Virus record (IMG/VR): IMGVR_UViG_3300021255_000032
Direction: 5' to 3' (one strand)
DNA length: 51,814 nt
Source of the DNA: a virus
Part shown: positions 12,221 to 30,855 of the stretch, piece by piece
How positions within the stretch are numbered: the first letter of the stretch is position 1
How the letters are laid out: every line of letters starts with the position of its first letter
Notes under the pieces: model-generated
The model's input: the letters and a program-made list of their open reading frames with translations, nothing else
Told to the model about the DNA's origin: nothing
Database searches by the model: none
Translations under genes and position numbers: made by a program

Positions 12221-13210
12221 ATGGAAAGTTTCATCATTGACAAAGACAGAAAAGCAGTAGAGCACGTTTCCGGCGGCAAAATGACGCTGATTTATGACAA
12301 CGCGGGTAACCCGTCTGTCATGTGTGTGATTCCGAAATTCCGCATGGAAGATGTTGACGCGAACCTTGGAACGGGCGTACACCCGGCTTTCCTGGTGCAC
12401 GGAAAAGAAGTGCCGGAAATTTTTATCTCGAAGTATCAGAACGTTATCGCAAACGGCAGAGCCTACTCGCTTGCGCATGAAGACCCGAAAGCCTACATCA
12501 CTTTTGACCAGTCGAAAGCAGCTTGCGACGCAAAAGGCCGGGGCTGGCACATTATGACTCGCGCAGAGTGGGCAGCTATTGCTTTGTGGTGCAAAGCTAA
12601 CGGCTTTATGCCTCGCGGCAACACGGCCTCCGGCAGAGCTTATGACGCCCTGCATGAATGCGGCGTTATGGGCGGCGACGCTCGCACCCTCACGGGCAGC
12701 GGTCCCGTGACGTGGAACCACGACAACACCCCGTACGGCATTAGCGACATGTGCGGTAACATCTGGGAATGGAACGACGGCATGAAGATTATTGATGGCC
12801 ATATCTACATTCACGGCGAAGATGGTGTAGCCATGAACAATTTCGACACCGCGAACATTGAAAACAATGTCAGCGGCTGGGTAAATACAAACGCTTTCTA
12901 CATGGGCGACGGTATGAAGATTGGCGCAGCTCGTGCCAACGCAAAGGGCTATGACGGCAACTTCAAAGACCTTGTAGCCAACAGCGGCTTTACGATTCCG
13001 AACACTCTTAAGCAGCTCGCGCTCGCTCCTACTACGGGCAACACGACTGACGACCATTTCTGGTGCAACACCGAAGGTGAGCGTATCCCGTTCTCGGGTG
13101 GCAATTGGAACCGCGGCTCGACTGCGGGCTTGTTCGTTTTGTCTTTGGACTACGTTCGTTCGCACTCGCACGGCGACATCGGTTTCCGCTCCGCTTATAT
13201 TGCGATTTGA
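12221..13210 (+). CDS. DGR target (variable) protein, FGE-sulfatase / C-type-lectin-fold receptor-binding candidate
   Basis: 329 aa. The VR occupies the last about 43 codons. FGE/CLec-like motifs are present (GWHIMTRAEWAAIALWC, CGNIWEWNDG, GGNWNxG...GFRSA). It is the last gene of the tail fibre module. Confidence 0.9.
   Translation: MESFIIDKDRKAVEHVSGGKMTLIYDNAGNPSVMCVIPKFRMEDVDANLGTGVHPAFLVHGKEVPEIFISKYQNVIANGRAYSLAHEDPKAYITFDQSKAACDAKGRGWHIMTRAEWAAIALWCKANGFMPRGNTASGRAYDALHECGVMGGDARTLTGSGPVTWNHDNTPYGISDMCGNIWEWNDGMKIIDGHIYIHGEDGVAMNNFDTANIENNVSGWVNTNAFYMGDGMKIGAARANAKGYDGNFKDLVANSGFTIPNTLKQLALAPTTGNTTDDHFWCNTEGERIPFSGGNWNRGSTAGLFVLSLDYVRSHSHGDIGFRSAYIAI
13082..13196 (+). repeat. DGR variable repeat (VR)
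   Basis: A 115-nt match to TR (offset 580 nt) with 12 mismatches, each at a TR adenine. It ends in the GC-rich GGTTTCCGCTCCGCTT (IMH-like). Confidence 0.95.
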
Positions 13211-13232
13211 CCCTTGATACTTGTGTTTTGCA

Positions 13233-13254
13233 GGGACGGGCGATAGCCCGTCCC
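13233..13254 (+). other. Hairpin downstream of VR (DGR retrohoming hairpin/cruciform candidate, possibly also a terminator)
   Basis: GGGACGGGC-GATA-GCCCGTCCC: a 9-bp GC-rich stem with a 4-nt loop, 22 nt after the target gene stop. The position matches the VR-proximal hairpin described for the Bordetella phage DGR. Confidence 0.6.
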
Positions 13255-13283
13255 CAGCTTTATAAATAAAACATTTTGAAAGG

Positions 13284-13628
13284 TTGAGAACAACGAACAA
13301 ACTAACCATAATTACAAAAACGAATGATTTACTAGACGAAATTTACGACGCAATAGCACAATATCCGAAGTCGGAAAAATTCGCATTGGGAGCAGACACC
13401 AAACAGACCGGATTAAACTTTTATAGGTTAATCATTACGGCGGCGAAGAAGTATTATAAGAAAACGACATTGAGGGACGCTGATGTAGAATTATTTGTAT
13501 TAAAGAATTTTATCCGTATGGGACATAACCGCAGATACATGAACACAAAACGCTACGAACGATTATCGCGGGCAATCGAAGAAGTAGGCAGAATGTTAGG
13601 CGGTTGGATTCAAACAACGGAAAAATAA
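13284..13628 (+). CDS. avd: DGR accessory variability determinant (Avd-like four-helix-bundle protein)
   Basis: 114 aa, basic, lying between VR and TR. Avd / 23S-rRNA-IVS-family style motif DEIYDAIAQYPKSEKFALGADTKQ. The start codon is uncertain (TTG 13284). Confidence 0.8.
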   Translation: MRTTNKLTIITKTNDLLDEIYDAIAQYPKSEKFALGADTKQTGLNFYRLIITAAKKYYKKTTLRDADVELFVLKNFIRMGHNRRYMNTKRYERLSRAIEEVGRMLGGWIQTTEK

Positions 13629-13661
13629 AAAATAAAAATATTATTGGGGAATAGCTATTTA

Positions 13662-13776
13662 CGTATCCCGTTATCGGGTGGCAATTGGAACAACGGCTCG
13701 AATGCGGGCTTGTTCGATTTGAATTTGAACAACGTTCGTTCGAACTCGAACGGCAACATCGGTTTCCGCTCCGCTT
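13662..13776 (+). repeat. DGR template repeat (TR)
   Basis: Non-coding copy of VR. In the VR frame it reads IPLSGGNWNNGSNAGLFDLNLNNVRSNSNGNIGFRSA with 10 AAY codons. By my count it has 24 adenines, 12 of them substituted in VR. Confidence 0.95.
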
Positions 13777-13979
13777 TACTTCACTCGTCAGAAGTTATAA
13801 CCTCATGGGGTTATATCCAGTACAGAAGTATTAAAGGAGTTATTCTCCATTATTGCAGGGGAAATATACTGCAATAAAAAAATAAAAACGGAACGATACA
13901 GTTAGTAGCTGACCGCGAAAAATGTATCGTTGTTTATGGTAGACAATATTTTAGTAACCCTAAAGGAAGTATTAAACAC
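13777..13979 (+). ncRNA. DGR RNA spacer between TR and RT (structured)
   Basis: No credible ORF. Two hairpins: 13796-13815 (7 bp) and AACGATACA/TGTATCGTT at 13892-13900 / 13923-13931 (9 bp). By analogy, the TR-RT spacer of characterised DGRs is part of the priming RNA. Confidence 0.5.
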
Positions 13980-15044
13980 ATGAAACGGATAAACCATATT
14001 TACAGTAAAATCTATGACTTTGAGAATTTATACGCGGCTTATATGGAAGCGCGGAAAGCGAAAAGGTATAGGCACGATGTTATGAGGTTCACAGCGAACC
14101 TCGAAGAAAATCTCATAGAGCTTCAAAACGAACTCATTTACAAGACTTACAAAGTAGGTCGGTACAATGAGTTTTTTGTTTATGACCCTAAGAAACGACT
14201 TATCATGTCCCTGCCTTTTCGGGACAGAGTTGTGCAATGGGCGATTTACCGCCAGATTAACCCGCTTTTCGATAAGCGATATATTTCAACCTCGTATGGT
14301 TGCAGAGTTGGCGGCGGCGCGCATAGAGCCGTGAAGAAGTTGAAGGAATACATCAGGGCGCAGCCGGGGACAGCTTACGTCCTAAAGATGGATATTAGCA
14401 AATATTTTTATCGCATAAACCATGATGTGCTGATGGGAACGCTTAGAGGCATGATAAAAGACGAAGATTTATTATGGCTTTTGGAAACCATTATACGCGG
14501 CGAACATGATTTTGGGATTGAGGTAGACGATTGGGATTATACAGGGCGACGGCTTTCTAATGTCGGTATGCCGATTGGAAATTTATCCTCACAGATGTTT
14601 GCTAATCTTTATCTTAATGCGGCAGACCATTTTGCCAAAGAAGTATTGAGATGTAAATATTATATCCGTTACATGGACGATATGGTTATCGTCGATACCG
14701 ATAAGAAACGATTGCGGGAAGTGTTGCGGGAAATGGACAGCTTTCTTGTCAATAAATTGGCGTTGAAGCTGAATAATAAAACCTGTATACGGACGGCAAC
14801 ACAGGGCGTTGACTTTTGCGGGTACAGAGTTTGGGGGACTCATATCCGTCTACGTAAAAAATCAGCGATAAAAATGAAACATAGGCTAAAACATCTGCAA
14901 AAAGAATTTTCCAAAGGGAGAATTAAAACGGACACGTTCAGAAATAGCCTAATGAGCTATATGGGAATGTTGGAGCATTGCGACTCCTATTCCTTAAAGA
15001 ACAAGATTTTTGATTCTATTGTTTTGACAAAAGGAGGAAGATAA
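13980..15044 (+). CDS. DGR reverse transcriptase
   Basis: 354 aa. Has the DGR-type motif PIGNLSSQMFANLYL and the catalytic YIRYMDDMVIV (YMDD). Immediately downstream of TR. Confidence 0.95.
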   Translation: MKRINHIYSKIYDFENLYAAYMEARKAKRYRHDVMRFTANLEENLIELQNELIYKTYKVGRYNEFFVYDPKKRLIMSLPFRDRVVQWAIYRQINPLFDKRYISTSYGCRVGGGAHRAVKKLKEYIRAQPGTAYVLKMDISKYFYRINHDVLMGTLRGMIKDEDLLWLLETIIRGEHDFGIEVDDWDYTGRRLSNVGMPIGNLSSQMFANLYLNAADHFAKEVLRCKYYIRYMDDMVIVDTDKKRLREVLREMDSFLVNKLALKLNNKTCIRTATQGVDFCGYRVWGTHIRLRKKSAIKMKHRLKHLQKEFSKGRIKTDTFRNSLMSYMGMLEHCDSYSLKNKIFDSIVLTKGGR

Positions 15045-17314: not shown

Positions 17315-17348
17315 GACAGGCAGGGATTTTCCTTGCCTGTCTTTTTTT
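17315..17348 (+). terminator. Rho-independent terminator ending the late/lysis operon
   Basis: An 11-bp stem GACAGGCAGGG/CCTTGCCTGTC with loop ATTTT, followed by a T7 run. Confidence 0.8.
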
Positions 17349-17411: not shown

Positions 17412-17440
17412 TTGACTTTTTATTTAGAATTGAGTATGAT
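17412..17440 (+). promoter_or_regulatory. Sigma-70-type promoter of the accessory island
   Basis: TTGACT (17412-17417), 17-nt spacer, TATGAT (17435-17440), inside a very AT-rich stretch. Confidence 0.6.
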
Positions 17441-17485: not shown

Positions 17486-17713
17486 ATGTGGAGCAAAGGA
17501 ATTTTAGAGATTGACGGCGTTAAGGTTGAGTACCAGGTCAAGCACTACGAAGAAGGTTCGACGTTCGGAATTGAAGAAGGGAAAATCTCAAAGCTATTCT
17601 GCTACGTCGGACGGGACGAAGTTATCAACTACGACAGAGGCGAATGGAGCAAGAAACCGAAAACGGCAGTCAGCCGGAAAGCATACAAAGCCCTTCTGGA
17701 AAGATTCAACTAA
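17486..17713 (+). CDS. Hypothetical protein
   Basis: 75 aa, GAAGGAGG RBS, first gene after the promoter. Confidence 0.6.
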   Translation: MWSKGILEIDGVKVEYQVKHYEEGSTFGIEEGKISKLFCYVGRDEVINYDRGEWSKKPKTAVSRKAYKALLERFN

Positions 17714-17770
17714 GCCGAAACCGCCGAAAGGCGGTCATAGCAGGACAGCAACCTGTTATCTGATGATGGC
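17714..17770 (+). ncRNA. Type II hammerhead ribozyme candidate (copy 1)
   Basis: GCC|GAA|A-CCGCC-GAAA-GGCGG-U|C^|AUAGCAGG-ACAGCAA-CCUGUUAU|CUGAUGA|U|GGC. All core nucleotides are present: CUGAUGA, GAA, the A15.1-U16.1 pair and a GUC cleavage triplet. Predicted cleavage is after C17736. Confidence 0.65.
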
Positions 17771-17793
17771 AAGCTAAAAGGAGGATACAGACC

Positions 17794-18237
17794 ATGAAAC
17801 ATATTCATATTGACCAGTACACCGCCATTTTTAACGCTTTTCTCAAGGAGCACGGCGAACACAAGGAAACCTGCGACAAAAGCGACTGGGGCGACACCTA
17901 CAAAGAGATTTCTTTCAGCGACGGGGCGACTTGGAACGAATGCCGCCGGGCAGATGGCACCTTGGAATTTTGGAACAGCAAGGACAGCAAAAGCCGCATG
18001 GTGGACGAAGGAGCAGAAAATGAATGGTTGAGCTTGGGCGGCGGTTTCACAATCCCCCTCAACGAAAAGTATTCAAAGAGCTTCACGCTCGCGAACTTCT
18101 ACCTCACGAAGAACGGCAAGTACATGAAGGTTAAGTTACAGAGCAATTGGAACAGCAGCTACAACGAAACCCGCTTTCACAACGTAGAAAATTGCGGCGG
18201 CACTCCGATGAATGTTATTGCAGAGTATACGAGATAA
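17794..18237 (+). CDS. Hypothetical protein
   Basis: 147 aa, AAAGGAGGA RBS. Confidence 0.6.
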   Translation: MKHIHIDQYTAIFNAFLKEHGEHKETCDKSDWGDTYKEISFSDGATWNECRRADGTLEFWNSKDSKSRMVDEGAENEWLSLGGGFTIPLNEKYSKSFTLANFYLTKNGKYMKVKLQSNWNSSYNETRFHNVENCGGTPMNVIAEYTR

Positions 18238-18250
18238 GGAGGAACACATC

Positions 18251-18484
18251 ATGGAATTTGTACAGATTGAAGCCGCAAGACAGGGTTACAGCCCCTCGGA
18301 CATTGCAGGAAAGACCTTGACCGTGGCAGAGCTTAGGGAACTTCTCGACCAATACCCGGACGATATGCCCGTGATTTTATCCCACGACAACGGCTACACC
18401 TACGGCGGCATTGGTTACAACGATGTTACCGACGGATATTATGCAGACGAAAACGAAGATAGCTACGGCGAAGGGGAAGAATGA
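18251..18484 (+). CDS. Hypothetical acidic protein
   Basis: 77 aa from ATG 18251 (AAGGAGGA RBS), preferred over the track start 18212. Acidic C-terminal tail YYADENEDSYGEGEE. Confidence 0.6.
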   Translation: MEFVQIEAARQGYSPSDIAGKTLTVAELRELLDQYPDDMPVILSHDNGYTYGGIGYNDVTDGYYADENEDSYGEGEE

Positions 18485-18544
18485 GCCGAAACCTCCCACA
18501 CGGGAGGTCGCCGGGGGATTGACCACCCCCGGCCTGATGATGGC
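18485..18544 (+). ncRNA. Type II hammerhead ribozyme candidate (copy 2)
   Basis: GCC|GAA|A-CCUCCC-ACAC-GGGAGG-U|C^|GCCGGGGG-AUUGACCA-CCCCCGGC|CUGAUGA|U|GGC. Same architecture and identical core as copy 1, with entirely different but still complementary stems I and III. Predicted cleavage is after C18509. Confidence 0.65.
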
Positions 18545-18571
18545 AGGTTGAGAGAAAAGGAGGATTCAAAT

Positions 18572-19369
18572 ATGAACACTTATGAAGAAAAACAAGCCCG
18601 TAGAAGGGAATACTACGAGGCCAAAGCGGCAGCAGCTAGGGCAGAAAGCCACGAGCAGTACAACACCTTCAAAAAGATGGCTGATGTTATCCCGATGGGG
18701 CAGCCGATTCTCGTTGGACACCACAGCGAAAAGAGCGATAGAGCCTATCGCGGCAGAATGACGGGGCACATGGACAAAAGTATCGAGCTCAGCAAGAAGG
18801 CCGAATACTATCAGCAGAAGGCCGAAAGCGTAGGGCAGGGTGGCATAAGCGGGTACGACCCGGACGCGGTTACGAAGTTGAAGGAGAAGCTGGACAAGCT
18901 GAAGGAGCAGCAGGAACGCATGAAGGCGGCAAACAAAGCCCTCCGGCTTAAGGACACCGAAAAGGGCAACGCAAGACTCCGTGAGCAGGGTTATTCTGAA
19001 AAGCAGATTGAAGAACTCCGTACGCCGGATTGTTTCGGGTGCATTGGTTTCGCAAGCTACACCCTCACGAACAACAACGCGAGCATACACCGGATTGAAA
19101 AGCGCATAAAGCAATTGGAGGCAGCCAAAGAGCACGAAGGGGAGGAAAAGGAAACCGACCTTTACAGCTACCGCATAGAGGACGCGCGGGTACAATTCAC
19201 ATTTGACGGCAAGCCAGAGCCGTGCGTAAGGGACATTCTGAAAAGGCACGGATTCAAGTGGGCACCGTCCAGGGGCGCATGGGTAAGACAGGCGACCGCG
19301 AACGGCAGATACGCGGCAAAGAGCGTTATGCAGGAATTAGATGATTTGGAGGCGTTCGATAATGAGTGA
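18572..19369 (+). CDS. DUF3560-like protein
   Basis: GQPILVGHHSEKSDRAYRGRM motif and a C-terminal KRHGFKWAPSRGAWV module, as I recall for DUF3560 proteins of plasmids and phages. ATG 18572 after AAGGAGGA is preferred over TTG 18548. Confidence 0.5.
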   Translation: MNTYEEKQARRREYYEAKAAAARAESHEQYNTFKKMADVIPMGQPILVGHHSEKSDRAYRGRMTGHMDKSIELSKKAEYYQQKAESVGQGGISGYDPDAVTKLKEKLDKLKEQQERMKAANKALRLKDTEKGNARLREQGYSEKQIEELRTPDCFGCIGFASYTLTNNNASIHRIEKRIKQLEAAKEHEGEEKETDLYSYRIEDARVQFTFDGKPEPCVRDILKRHGFKWAPSRGAWVRQATANGRYAAKSVMQELDDLEAFDNE

Positions 19370-19697
19370 GCTGAAAGTAAAGACCTTTGACGGGTGGCAT
19401 AAATATGCAGAAAAGACCGGGAAACACAGCTACGAGGACTACGCGCAGCCGGGGGACAAAATCGACCGGGAAACATACGACTACTTCATGAATTGTCTGC
19501 CGCCCGCCACGATGGGGTACGGATATTTCCAGATGGGGGAGGAACACGATTACAGGGAGGTGGACGGCAAAATGCGAGCCACCTACATGACCTTCCTGCA
19601 CGAAGGCGGGGACAGCTATTTCTACCTCGGCGACCTTCCCGCCGGGTACACGCGAGAGCCTAATGGAAAAATTCGCAGATTGTTGCTAAAATGTTGA
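19362..19697 (+). CDS. Hypothetical protein
   Basis: 111 aa from ATG 19362, overlapping the upstream stop by 8 nt. Confidence 0.55.
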   Translation: MSELKVKTFDGWHKYAEKTGKHSYEDYAQPGDKIDRETYDYFMNCLPPATMGYGYFQMGEEHDYREVDGKMRATYMTFLHEGGDSYFYLGDLPAGYTREPNGKIRRLLLKC

Positions 19698-19723
19698 TGG
19701 AGAAAATTGAAGGGGGTTTGAAT

Positions 19724-19939
19724 ATGACAGCAGAAAAAGAGCCGGAAAAGAAACGGGGAAGGGGGCGTCCGAGAGTCGCACCAGAGGACAGCAAAGCCCG
19801 CCCTCCCCACATGATAAAGGCGTTTGACAATGAGTTCGCATTGGTTAAGCGGTTCAACCGCTTGACCCGGACTCACCCGGAGGAATGCGAGAAGATTTTG
19901 GAGGCATTGGAGAACTGGAAAGGAGGGCGGCAGGAATGA
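19724..19939 (+). CDS. Hypothetical protein with an AT-hook-like basic N-terminus
   Basis: MTAEKEPEKKRGRGRPRVAPE... ATG 19724 follows GAAGGGGG. Confidence 0.5.
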   Translation: MTAEKEPEKKRGRGRPRVAPEDSKARPPHMIKAFDNEFALVKRFNRLTRTHPEECEKILEALENWKGGRQE

Positions 19940-20157
19940 GTTTTCAAGACAATCAAGGACTGAAAAAACCGAAACGTAGTTGCCCCTTTTGCGGCGGCCA
20001 TGATATTGAGATTTACGAGCATTACGGGACAGCGGTAGGGATTGACTACGGCGGCTTTTTCCCGGAGTGTACCGAATGCGGTTGCAGGTTGACCTATTAC
20101 CATAGCAGGGAAGCCGCCATAGACGCATGGGACAGGAGGTGGGGTGAAGATGAATGA
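19936..20157 (+). CDS. Lar-family restriction-alleviation-like protein (copy 1)
   Basis: CPFCGGHDIEI...CTECGC...REAAIDAWDRRW: a Zn-ribbon plus the (E/D)A...AWN/DRR ending typical of Lar-family proteins. ATGA overlap with the upstream gene. Confidence 0.6.
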   Translation: MSFQDNQGLKKPKRSCPFCGGHDIEIYEHYGTAVGIDYGGFFPECTECGCRLTYYHSREAAIDAWDRRWGEDE

Positions 20158-20432: not shown

Positions 20433-20458
20433 CCCTCCCGGATTTGGGAGGGCTTTTT
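20433..20458. terminator. Bidirectional rho-independent terminator between the accessory island (+) and the integrase (-)
   Basis: CCCTCCC-GGATTT-GGGAGGG, followed by CTTTTT on the + strand and by TTGTTTTA on the - strand. Confidence 0.75.
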
Positions 20459-20460
20459 CT

Positions 20461-21957
20461 TTACTTGAAAACGAAGTCGAAGTCGAGCAGGTACTTATGG
20501 CCATAGTTATAATCGCGCCGGATTACAGAAACCTTTTCGAGGATTTCAAGCACGACCCTACGCCTAGCCTCTAACGTTGGCGGGCAATTGCGAACCACCG
20601 CGACAATATCAGCCGGGGCATTTTGTTCTGCAGGGGCGGCAGATGTTTTCTCCGACTCGGCCAACTCATTCTGCAGCCGGGATTCCTCTGCCTTCAAGGC
20701 GGTCAGCTTTTCCGTAGCCTCGGACTGGCCTAGAAGAGATTGAGAAAACCACGCCATGACGGCTTGCCTTTCTGAATGGATCTTCTCTATTCGCTTGAGT
20801 ATCTTCTGCCGCTTGTTTTGGGCAGGGGCGGCAGATGTTTTTCCGTCAGCACGTTTTCCGATGTAGGCCGTCAAGGTTTCTTCATTGGTGCAGATTTGTT
20901 CCAGAGTTGACCAAAAGAGAGCGTCAGCGACAGGCAGCTCCATATAGCGGGAAGGGCATTTGCCGCCGTTACGCGGGGCAGATTCAGGACATTGATACCA
21001 TCGACGACCGCGCTTCCCGTCTGTGCAGATTCTTATGCGCGTACCACAATGACCGCAATAAGCAAGCCCCTGCAGCAGCCCTATGTCATTGTTTTTCTTC
21101 CATGTTTTGTAGGTACGTTTTTTAGATTTGATTTCGAGGGCTTTTTCATGTAGTTCAGCCGGGATAATTGCGGGGCAGGTCATTTCTATCCATTCTTCAC
21201 GCGGGCGGGGGATTTTCTTGTAGGATTTCGGTCCCGTCTTTTTGTGGTACTTTGTGTTGGCAAAGTAGCGACCTGTATAGTGGGGGCGGTGGATTATGTT
21301 ACGCACCGAACTGGCGCACCACTTCACGCCTGTGGGGGAGGGTATGCCCTGTTTGTTGAGCATATCGGCAATGACTTCACAGCCGCCGACCCTGTCCTCC
21401 ACGTACCATTGGTACACGCGCTTGACGATTTCAGCCTCGGCAGGATTCACGACATAGCAGCAGGTTTCCCGGTCGAAGTCGTAGCCATAGATGTGACTGT
21501 CATTTATTGCCTTCCCGGCGCGAAGTTTGGCACGCTTCCCGCGCATTGTTCGCTCCCTTATTTTGGCGCGTTCGTATTCAGCAAATACGCCTTTCATCTG
21601 ATAGGACATATTGCCCTCAGGGGTATTGTCGAACCGTTCGAGCACGAACACGGGACGGCAGCCAGCTTTCTCCAATTCCTCTGTCAAGATAAGCTGATGT
21701 ATCAATTTCCGCGCCATACGGTCAGCGTCGTGGAAAATTACAGCCTCGTACAGGCCGTCTTGGACAGCGTCGCGCAGATTGTCCAGGGCAGGACGTTCGA
21801 GGAAGCCGCCGGAATAGCCATCGTCGATGTATTCTTTCACGACAAAAGCACCCATCTCAGCAGCCTTTTTCCGGCAAGCCTCTATTTGCGTACCGATGGA
21901 ATAGCCGTGCTCGGCTTGCCATTCCGTAGATACGCGGGCATATATAGCAACGTTCAT
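20461..21957 (-). CDS. int: Large serine recombinase (integrase)
   Basis: Resolvase-type N-terminus MNVAIYARVSTEWQAEHGYSIGTQ, a recombinase domain, a Zn-ribbon (CGHCGTRI...C) and a C-terminal coiled coil. ATG 21957 is preferred over the track start 22059. Confidence 0.9.
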   Translation of the reverse strand: MNVAIYARVSTEWQAEHGYSIGTQIEACRKKAAEMGAFVVKEYIDDGYSGGFLERPALDNLRDAVQDGLYEAVIFHDADRMARKLIHQLILTEELEKAGCRPVFVLERFDNTPEGNMSYQMKGVFAEYERAKIRERTMRGKRAKLRAGKAINDSHIYGYDFDRETCCYVVNPAEAEIVKRVYQWYVEDRVGGCEVIADMLNKQGIPSPTGVKWCASSVRNIIHRPHYTGRYFANTKYHKKTGPKSYKKIPRPREEWIEMTCPAIIPAELHEKALEIKSKKRTYKTWKKNNDIGLLQGLAYCGHCGTRIRICTDGKRGRRWYQCPESAPRNGGKCPSRYMELPVADALFWSTLEQICTNEETLTAYIGKRADGKTSAAPAQNKRQKILKRIEKIHSERQAVMAWFSQSLLGQSEATEKLTALKAEESRLQNELAESEKTSAAPAEQNAPADIVAVVRNCPPTLEARRRVVLEILEKVSVIRRDYNYGHKYLLDFDFVFK

Positions 21958-22089
21958 GTGGTCAAAATTTCCCCTTTCATTTATGCAAAAAAATATTCCA
22001 TTGTTTGGATTGAAATTATTCCATTGCGCACAATGTAAAAACGCAAGGCGAAAAGTCAAGCAAACTGCAAAAATCGAAGAAAAGTAAAG

Positions 22090-30346: not shown

Positions 30347-30855
30347 AAATCGACAAAGATACGCCGTTTTGTTTCACCATACCGGGGCAGCCAGCAACGA
30401 AGAAAAACAGCCCCGTCCTCGTAAGGGGGCGGGCGGTTGTTTTGCCGAGCAAGGCATACAAAGCATACGAGAAGGCTTTTCGCAAGGAGCTGGAACGGAT
30501 AGAGGCAGAAAGGGGAGGGCTACCGCACTACGACGGTCCCGTCCAACTGTGGGCAAGGTATTTTCTGCAGGACAGGAGAGCCTACCCGGATTTGAACGGG
30601 CTTATCCAGGCAACGCAGGACATCATCAGCGACGAATATAGCCACAAAGACCACCGCAAGACCTTGAAGCGGCGGTGGATTCTTGCAGACGACCGTCTCG
30701 TGAAAAGTCTTGACGGGTGCAGGATAGCAGGGATAGACAAGGATTGTCCGCGCGTTGAGATTTACATAGAGCCGTTGGAGGTTGACCCGGAGCAGGAGAC
30801 AGACCCGGCAATAGTACGACTGATTAAAGAGCGAATGCAACAAGGGCTTTTCTAA
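30343..30855 (+). CDS. rusA: RusA-family Holliday junction resolvase
   Basis: FTIPGQPATKKNSP..., DLNGLIQATQDIISD, ILADDRLV. TTG start overlapping the upstream stop. Confidence 0.65.
   Translation: MKIDKDTPFCFTIPGQPATKKNSPVLVRGRAVVLPSKAYKAYEKAFRKELERIEAERGGLPHYDGPVQLWARYFLQDRRAYPDLNGLIQATQDIISDEYSHKDHRKTLKRRWILADDRLVKSLDGCRIAGIDKDCPRVEIYIEPLEVDPEQETDPAIVRLIKERMQQGLF

Follow-up and report, generated by a model that had tools for sequence, protein, structure and literature searches.

A probable type II hammerhead ribozyme between two small genes in an operon of a temperate Clostridia phage

We analysed a stretch of viral DNA of 51,814 nucleotides (IMG/VR virus record IMGVR_UViG_3300021255_000032; the whole stretch is called the window here) and found that positions 17714-17775 of its plus strand probably encode a functional type II hammerhead self-cleaving ribozyme. 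On sequence evidence we put the probability of this at roughly 0.8. The candidate, hammerhead A (HH-A), is 62 bases long and occupies the 80-nt gap between a gene for a DUF7678 protein and a gene for a protein of 147 amino acids (aa). It is one of two hammerheads in the same operon, and is probably real and active. The second, hammerhead B, lies about 770 nt downstream.

Core, fold and score of hammerhead A

A sequence-only reading made earlier had described 17711-17775 as a hammerhead opened at stem II, and the letters are exactly as it described them (Table 1). The type II topology and the core assignment also stood, as the core bases, the helices, the junction in the minimum free energy (MFE) fold and an alignment to positions 1-66 of the Rfam model all agree. 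All invariant hammerhead core bases were found in type II order, both by reading the sequence and in the Rfam alignment. Helices I and III are each capped by a loop and helix II is open, with 8 bp in stem I, 6 bp in stem III and 3 bp in stem II. Position 17 is a C, satisfying the rule that it be H (not G). When the hammerhead rule was applied to the Rfam alignment, the predicted cleavage fell after C17736, the same position that had been proposed before.

Two caveats had been raised, namely a stem II of only GCC/GGC and an extra U between A9 and G10.1. Both features are there: stem II does have three base pairs, and U17767 is the sole deviation of the core from the Rfam consensus. As weaknesses, however, neither held. 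Natural hammerheads often have no more than two base pairs in stem II (PMC3088659). The extra U is a tolerated variant, found in hammerhead B and in at least 120 viral hammerheads. A base inserted between A9 and G10.1 is natural in the (+) hammerhead of chrysanthemum chlorotic mottle viroid (CChMVd), and changing it from A to U raised the rate 3-4 fold, according to a passage of PMC3705267 that cites De la Pena and Flores (2001).

The proposed contact between AGC in loop I (17747-17749) and GCU in the 3' tail (17773-17775) lies in a register that covaries in 44 HH-A-like sequences, described below. The sequence thus points to a loop I/3'-tail tertiary contact that is present in hammerhead A but weaker than usual. 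Only three of the usual four pairs can form because C17746 and A17776 are mismatched.

The search with the Rfam Hammerhead_II model (RF02276) that had been suggested as a check was carried out, with a divided outcome. The model covered hammerhead A over its full length (1-66) at 32.4 bits, which is under the curated gathering threshold of 37 bits. The E value was 0.0092 for the whole window, both strands and all 4227 Rfam families, and fell to 3.6e-5 when 201 nt were scanned. With Rfam's default settings, which apply the gathering thresholds, only Hammerhead_II at 18484-18552 and an RT-14 RNA were reported, and hammerhead A was left out.

The descriptor CGAAAC..GTC..CTGATGA matched the window twice, exactly at the two hammerheads; 100 shuffles that preserved the dinucleotide composition of the window gave no match. 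Folded without constraints, an 81-nt piece took the hammerhead three-way junction as its MFE structure (z = -2.3). A relaxed scan of the window for all three permutations gave no credible copy besides A and B. A third core-like match at 30562-30629 on the minus strand, with a 3-bp stem around a 53-nt insert, was dismissed as chance. We also ruled out the reading of hammerhead A as a terminator, since no U-run follows either hairpin and the terminator scan lists nothing there.

Relatives and covariation

Related contigs, numbered with the prefix L, were collected by exact-protein look-ups and come from human, bovine and other metagenomes. Searches of viral contigs for the locus with single proteins gave almost no related loci. 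Hammerhead A was found at the equivalent place in L002-L009 at 32.4-33.2 bits, where hammerhead B scored 42-45 bits, and it was intergenic in all gene calls of the related contigs. The variant with a 3-bp pseudoknot is present on many independent contigs from different metagenomes.

The window was compared with L008, the most divergent of L002-L009. Hammerhead A was identical at 59/62 positions, the adjacent gene at 185/228 and the leader at 35/45; conservation is thus higher in hammerhead A than in its flanks. Of the three differences, two lie in stem I, where they alter one side only and leave the pairs intact (A-U to G-U and G-U to A-U), and the remaining one replaces C by U in loop I and gives a fourth pseudoknot pair.

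A core with the inserted U (GCCGAAAC..GTC..CTGATGATGGC; as RNA, GCCGAAAC..GUC..CUGAUGA-U-GGC) was found in at least 120 viral contig stretches. Among 122 unique sequences of this kind, stem III has at least 5 bp in 119 and stem I has at least 5 bp in 119. The stem sequences, including stem III, differ widely among these members, yet pairing is kept. The bases 3' of GGC are complementary to loop I in this subfamily.

A narrower, HH-A-like pattern fixed the lengths (8-bp stem I), the loop frame ANNNCAA and the tail AAG, and left the counted pair positions unconstrained. It matched 56 viral stretches and nine species-representative genomes, all nine of them Clostridia (e.g., Lachnospiraceae, Ruminococcus, Hungatella, Butyribacter). 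Pairs were counted in 44 unique HH-A-like sequences from phage contigs and Clostridia genomes. Across the stem I and pseudoknot positions, 96% of the cells pair, with changes on both sides in 6/8 stem I pairs and 3/4 pseudoknot pairs. The covariation score was 0.68; shuffles gave 0.23, and not one of the 500 came up to the observed value. When the 3' partners were shifted by 1-3 columns as a control, only 22-42% paired. In a tail-permutation test, 122 of 132 variable pseudoknot positions were paired, against 105 +/- 2.3 expected (0/10,000 permutations reached this). The covarying pseudoknot register of these relatives is the AGC/GCU register of hammerhead A.

A covariance model of the subfamily was considered and dropped in favour of pair counting, since its training set had been collected with a pattern derived from hammerhead A and its score would be partly circular. 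Seventeen loci with HH-A-like members (L045, L143, L148, L149, L152, L189, L190 and ten more) were searched with the Rfam model. Seven gave hammerhead hits at 28.0-35.4 bits, all below 37, and the other ten gave no hit at E <= 1. Every tested HH-A-like member is therefore sub-threshold, which indicates that the low score of hammerhead A reflects the model and not decay. The Rfam Hammerhead_II model and its threshold under-detect this subset.

We then took a census of placement over 161 unique subfamily hammerheads (L013-L192). An open reading frame (ORF) of at least 50 codons ends within 30 nt upstream in 142/161, and in 84/161 the stop codon upstream touches the GCC that begins stem II or overlaps the first base of it. 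Downstream, a Shine-Dalgarno (SD) sequence, a start codon and an ORF follow in 112/161, and the SD most often begins 8 nt after GGC. The subfamily hammerheads are thus tightly fitted intercistronic elements. The ORFs that flank them are very short, with a median of about 88 aa, and hardly any could be assigned to a Pfam family; among the few hits are a Mu-type transposase, LPD25, AcrIC5, PemK and Lar. No constant gene family was found next to the subfamily members in the census, in agreement with a published remark on flanked genes.

Two further ribozyme matches were seen near members of the subfamily. A pistol ribozyme (65.9 bits) lies at L138:572-643 on the minus strand, near an HH-A-like hammerhead of an unrelated contig, and a sub-threshold twister-P1-like match (36.1 bits) lies at L190:1017-1067 on the minus strand, about 200 nt from a hammerhead. 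These neighbours fit the known clustering of ribozyme classes.

The gene content around the two ribozymes varies among the related contigs. In L001, window 17489-17777 is missing, a segment that holds precisely the DUF7678 ORF and hammerhead A, and the junction shows SD-to-SD microhomology. The 147-aa gene (about 17814-18235) is absent from L006 and L007. In L008 the two ribozymes are separated by other small genes, one of which is an extra 65-aa gene ahead of hammerhead B. In distant DUF7678 homologues (about 50% identity; L010:3228-3330 and L011:3228-3350), the place of the hammerhead is taken by an intrinsic terminator (GGGGCGGGGAAACCCGCCCC followed by a T-run) and then an AT-rich promoter-like sequence. 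A terminator at the ribozyme position is consistent with a need to end the DUF7678 message there.

We also observed a hammerhead at L063:10570-10665 on the minus strand. It shares with hammerhead A the loop core, tail and SD (AAGCUAAAAGGAGG) and differs from it in stem III and outer stem I. Its place is between two small, unrelated genes on the opposite strand, and the phage that carries it is 81% identical in DNA to the window across the region of the diversity-generating retroelement (DGR) and holin.

Predicted cleavage and its alternatives

The sequence-only reading had placed the genes at 17486 and 17794 on one transcript. The scans agree with this, as a promoter-like site precedes both genes and no terminator was found between that site (17412-17440) and the hairpin at 20433-20452. 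During transcription of this operon, stems III and I would fold as hairpins. GGC at 17768-17770 would then close stem II with GCC at 17714-17716, and GCU at 17773-17775 would dock on AGC of loop I. By known hammerhead chemistry, the 2'-OH of C17736 would, with catalysis by the core, attack the phosphate next to it. On the upstream RNA the stop codon would be kept, and 23 nt beyond it the stem III hairpin would form the end, carrying a 2',3'-cyclic phosphate. The downstream RNA would carry a 5'-OH directly at the foot of stem I, with the ribozyme remnant, the Shine-Dalgarno sequence and the next gene behind it. Together with a cut by hammerhead B after C18509, a transcript of about 3 kb would give three mRNAs of about 0.29, 0.77 and 1.9 kb.

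The most likely purpose, which we infer with some uncertainty, would be to make the stability and translation of each cistron independent of its neighbours, and hammerhead A may thus serve as a natural intercistronic insulator. A working idea in the literature is that such ribozymes cut polycistronic RNA into messages of different stability or translatability (PMC6765202).

Several points weigh against an active and consequential ribozyme. The Rfam score of hammerhead A lies below the level at which RF02276 is annotated. In folding contexts of 200-560 nt both hairpins stay and the 3-bp stem II is lost to other pairings, which is unsurprising because these predictions ignore tertiary contacts. 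Variation among the orthologues is slight, with three substitutions and no double compensatory change. In Firmicutes, a 5'-OH end can reportedly be a substrate of RNase J1, as the glmS work of Collins et al. in 2007 is said to have found, so stabilisation of the downstream fragment would not be assured. The pseudoknot has three pairs, compared with four in most relatives, and shortening the pseudoknot cut the activity of another type II hammerhead 20-fold or more (PMC3088659); hammerhead A may therefore be slow at physiological Mg2+. The physiological consequence of bacterial and phage hammerheads is itself an open question (PMC6765202).

Among the alternatives, it is possible, though unlikely, that cleavage occurs but is regulatory. 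The 5'-OH would then mark the downstream genes for RNase J-type decay, or ribosomes terminating at the stop codon would gate cleavage, in which case the stoichiometry of the cistrons would depend on translation of the upstream gene. In favour is the stop placement seen in the census, and, judging by known ribosome footprints, a ribosome terminating there would overlie part of the ribozyme, namely GCC-GAA and half of stem III. Decay after cleavage has a precedent in glmS, where ribozyme cleavage can destabilise the mRNA (PMC6765202). However, the tight spacing is also expected from compaction of phage genomes, and no ligand-binding or switch element is visible. The new 5' end would also be flush with an 8-bp hairpin, an arrangement that generally protects against 5' exonucleases in Firmicutes.

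A broader proposal, which we consider quite unlikely, is that the hammerhead and the adjoining ribosome binding site (RBS) form a portable intercistronic module. This module would travel with small accessory, possibly anti-defence, cassettes among Clostridia phages, and cleavage would insulate the cassettes, perhaps gated by ribosomes at the stop. Cassettes could then be gained, lost or swapped without re-tuning expression. The hints are the precise absence of the DUF7678 ORF and hammerhead A from L001, the loss or replacement of genes between the ribozymes in other contigs, the near-identical tail and SD between unrelated genes in the related phage L063, and the tiny flanking ORFs with rare hits including AcrIC5, Lar and LPD25, together with a stop that abuts the ribozyme in about half of the members. 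These hints show no more than ordinary phage mosaicism and compaction.

It is very unlikely that hammerhead A is a decaying or weak relic, whose inherited fold persists only as a pair of intercistronic hairpins. Such a reading would blame the 3-bp pseudoknot, the inserted U and the A/U-rich stem I. The sub-threshold Rfam score, the pseudoknot pair lost relative to most relatives and the strong effect of a shortened pseudoknot on the rate of another type II hammerhead all point in this direction. Nevertheless, the low score is a property of the model, as all tested members of the covarying subset are sub-threshold, and the inserted U is the norm of the subfamily and also occurs in the above-threshold copy B. 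All invariant core bases are intact, hammerhead A is more conserved than the adjacent coding sequence, and the 3-bp variant occurs on many independent contigs of different metagenomes.

Another alternative is that both hammerheads cleave and ligate, and so excise, circularise or splice out the 773-nt segment with the 147-aa and 77-aa genes. Hammerheads do catalyse the reverse reaction, and Perreault et al. raised this idea for clustered prophage hammerheads, but they sought such products and found none (PMC3088659). We noticed no complementarity that would juxtapose the two ends, and the SD sites and start codons of the intervening genes are normal. We consider this alternative extremely improbable. 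Finally, the resemblance could be due to chance, with GAAA and CUGAUGA happening to stand beside ordinary intercistronic hairpins or a terminator. This reading has only the sub-threshold Rfam score in its favour and is effectively refuted by the computational evidence (the empty shuffles, the E value over all families, the lack of a U-run or a terminator call, the second hammerhead in the operon, the conserved position of hammerhead A and its covarying relatives).

The operon and comparison with known systems

The window is the genome of a temperate siphovirus-like phage, with phage genes throughout, including those for a tape-measure protein, portal, SMC-like ATPase, DGR, holin and amidase, as well as a helix-turn-helix (HTH) repressor-like gene. 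Its host group is Clostridia, and it is a temperate phage of the gut or rumen. The operon forms a discrete unit between the lysis genes and the integrase, and runs from the promoter-like site through the DUF7678 gene, hammerhead A, the 147-aa and 77-aa genes and hammerhead B to a DUF3560 gene and small ORFs (Table 1). The 147-aa, 77-aa and DUF7678 proteins were searched by sequence in Pfam, PHROGs, NCBIfam and PDB, and no function emerged for any of them.

Table 1. Features of hammerhead A, its operon and the diversity-generating retroelement (window positions)
Feature	Position	Strand	Basis or remark
Stop codon TAA of upstream gene	17711-17713	+	abuts 5' edge of hammerhead A
Stem II, 3' strand GCC (11.3-11.1)	17714-17716	+	pairs with GGC 17768-17770; sequence, Rfam alignment, MFE fold
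Core G12-A13-A14 (GAA)	17717-17719	+	sequence, Rfam alignment
Stem III hairpin ACCGCC-GAAA-GGCGGU, 6 bp including A15.1-U16.1 (A17720-U17735), GAAA loop	17720-17735	+	sequence, MFE fold
C17 (C17736) and predicted scissile bond C17736/A17737	17736..17737	+	from Rfam alignment, by the hammerhead rule that cleavage is 3' of position 17
Stem I hairpin AUAGCAGG-ACAGCAA-CCUGUUAU, 8 bp, heptaloop ACAGCAA	17737-17759	+	sequence, MFE fold, compensatory changes in relatives
Core C3-U4-G5-A6-U7-G8-A9 (CUGAUGA)	17760-17766	+	sequence, Rfam alignment
Inserted U between A9 and G10.1	17767	+	Rfam alignment; common to at least 120 viral hammerheads
Stem II, 5' strand GGC (10.1-10.3)	17768-17770	+	sequence, MFE fold
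AA, then 3'-tail GCU	17773-17775 (GCU)	+	GCU complementary to loop I AGC 17747-17749 (pseudoknot)
Terminator-like hairpin, strong	17315-17341		precedes operon promoter-like site
Promoter-like site TTGACT-17-TATGAT	17412-17440	+	consensus scan, 10/12 hexamer matches
Upstream gene, 75 aa, DUF7678	17486-17713	+	PF24726, E = 1.7e-23
Shine-Dalgarno GGAGG (17780-17784) and ATG (17794-17796) of downstream gene	17780-17796	+	directly after hammerhead A tail
Downstream gene, 147 aa, no known family	17794-18237	+	absent from contigs L006 and L007
77-aa gene, phrog_3939	18251-18484	+	TGA stop meets hammerhead B
Hammerhead B, type II	18484-18552	+	Rfam Hammerhead_II 43.7 bits, above threshold; C17 at 18509
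Operon remainder: DUF3560 protein, small ORFs, Lar homologue	18572-20157	+	
Lar-family restriction-alleviation homologue	19885-20157	+	TIGR03655, 40.8 bits vs cut-off 39.6
Bidirectional terminator-like hairpin, operon end	20433-20452	.	terminator scan
Serine integrase gene	20461-22059	-	beyond operon-end hairpin
Complete DGR	12221-15044		
DGR target gene, FGE-sulfatase/C-type-lectin-like end	12221-13210		
DGR variable repeat	13082-13196		
DGR template repeat	13662-13776		
Rfam RT-14 RNA, 84 bits	13774-13933		overlaps last three template-repeat bases, continues downstream
DGR reverse transcriptase gene	13980-15044		

Hammerhead B begins at the last base of the TGA stop of the 77-aa gene, and the RBS of the next gene follows its tail. 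It has in common with hammerhead A the core, the GCC/GGC stem II and the inserted U after A9. Unlike A, it has G/C-rich stems, an 8-nt loop I and a 4-bp pseudoknot (GACC 18521-18524 with GGUU 18546-18549), and the z-score of its fold is -3.3, compared with -2.3 for A. We also saw a weak promoter-like site (9/12 matches) at 18414-18442 on the plus strand, inside the 77-aa gene just upstream of hammerhead B. This site is probably due to chance; if it were real, the distal genes could be transcribed independently.

A BLAST search against GenBank phages gave short hammerhead-to-hammerhead matches only, for copy B, in Streptomyces phages. The matches in Salutena (MT708548.1: 37926-37992), Jevington and Marav have 81-83% identity to hammerhead B and lie in regions without an annotated feature. 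These stretches are likely to be unannotated type II hammerheads of actinophages.

Elsewhere in the window, the two repeats of the DGR are 115 nt long and have 12 differences, all at template adenines. The RT-14 RNA within this element has been published only as a reverse-transcriptase-associated motif of unknown role (PMC5737381).

Perreault et al. (2011, PMC3088659) found type II hammerheads to be common in bacteria, often near integrases and prophages; the sequence-only reading had already noted, with reference to this work, that the class is known from bacterial and prophage intergenic regions. Several of them flank single genes or short gene blocks in prophages (PMC3088659). Clustered type II hammerheads that flank single prophage genes are thus an already published arrangement, and hammerhead A fits it in every tested respect. 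It is a sound but ordinary find, which will not surprise a specialist and leaves existing knowledge unchanged. What it adds is a well-supported hammerhead pair in a defined, promoter-to-terminator accessory operon of a temperate Clostridia phage. Because the covarying HH-A-like set (inserted U, 8-bp stem I, ANNNCAA loop, AAG-led tail) falls under the Rfam cut-off, such ribozymes are under-annotated in phage genomes. Furthermore, a two-ribozyme operon with clear predicted products and natural variants that lack a cassette would be a convenient test system for the role of hammerheads.

Like the type II hammerheads of prophages (PMC3088659; RF02276), hammerhead A is open at stem II, has the full core and a short stem II, and would form a pseudoknot between loop I and the tail. 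It is likewise intergenic near an integrase, and the two copies flank a short block of variable small genes (PMC3088659). Unlike RF02276, it carries a U after A9 and has three pseudoknot pairs instead of four or more, and hammerhead A and its tested HH-A-like relatives score 28-35 bits. A pseudoknot hammerhead with a crystal structure (PMC11300833) was also considered and rejected as the closest relative, as the pseudoknot replaces helix II there.

Desulfovibrio vulgaris has three type II hammerheads close to phage-like genes, and these cleave in vivo (PMC8782182). The (+) hammerhead of CChMVd resembles hammerhead A in having one extra nucleotide at the same core position, where the cited passage indicates that a U is compatible with cleavage. 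It differs in being a viroid type III ribozyme that processes rolling-circle RNA, with A as the natural base and an unrelated context and biology.

Tandem hammerheads cleave during in vitro transcription, and a triple set around ardA was cleaved in vivo in E. coli (PMC3088659). Like this Agrobacterium tumefaciens set, the hammerheads of the phage operon would cut a polycistronic RNA into gene-length pieces (PMC3088659). Both units contain an anti-restriction gene, ardA in A. tumefaciens and the Lar-family homologue in the phage. The A. tumefaciens set differs in coming from another phylum, in having unrelated genes and in that its cleavage was shown in vivo in E. coli. The Lar homologue, unlike ardA, is not directly flanked by ribozymes.

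The last comparison is with RiboJ, reportedly a synthetic insulator that Lou et al. made in 2012 from a satellite RNA ribozyme and that is said to be used at the 5' end of transcripts. Like RiboJ, hammerhead A lies just upstream of an RBS, where its cleavage would remove the upstream RNA context and leave a 5' hairpin. Unlike RiboJ, it is natural and lies between cistrons.

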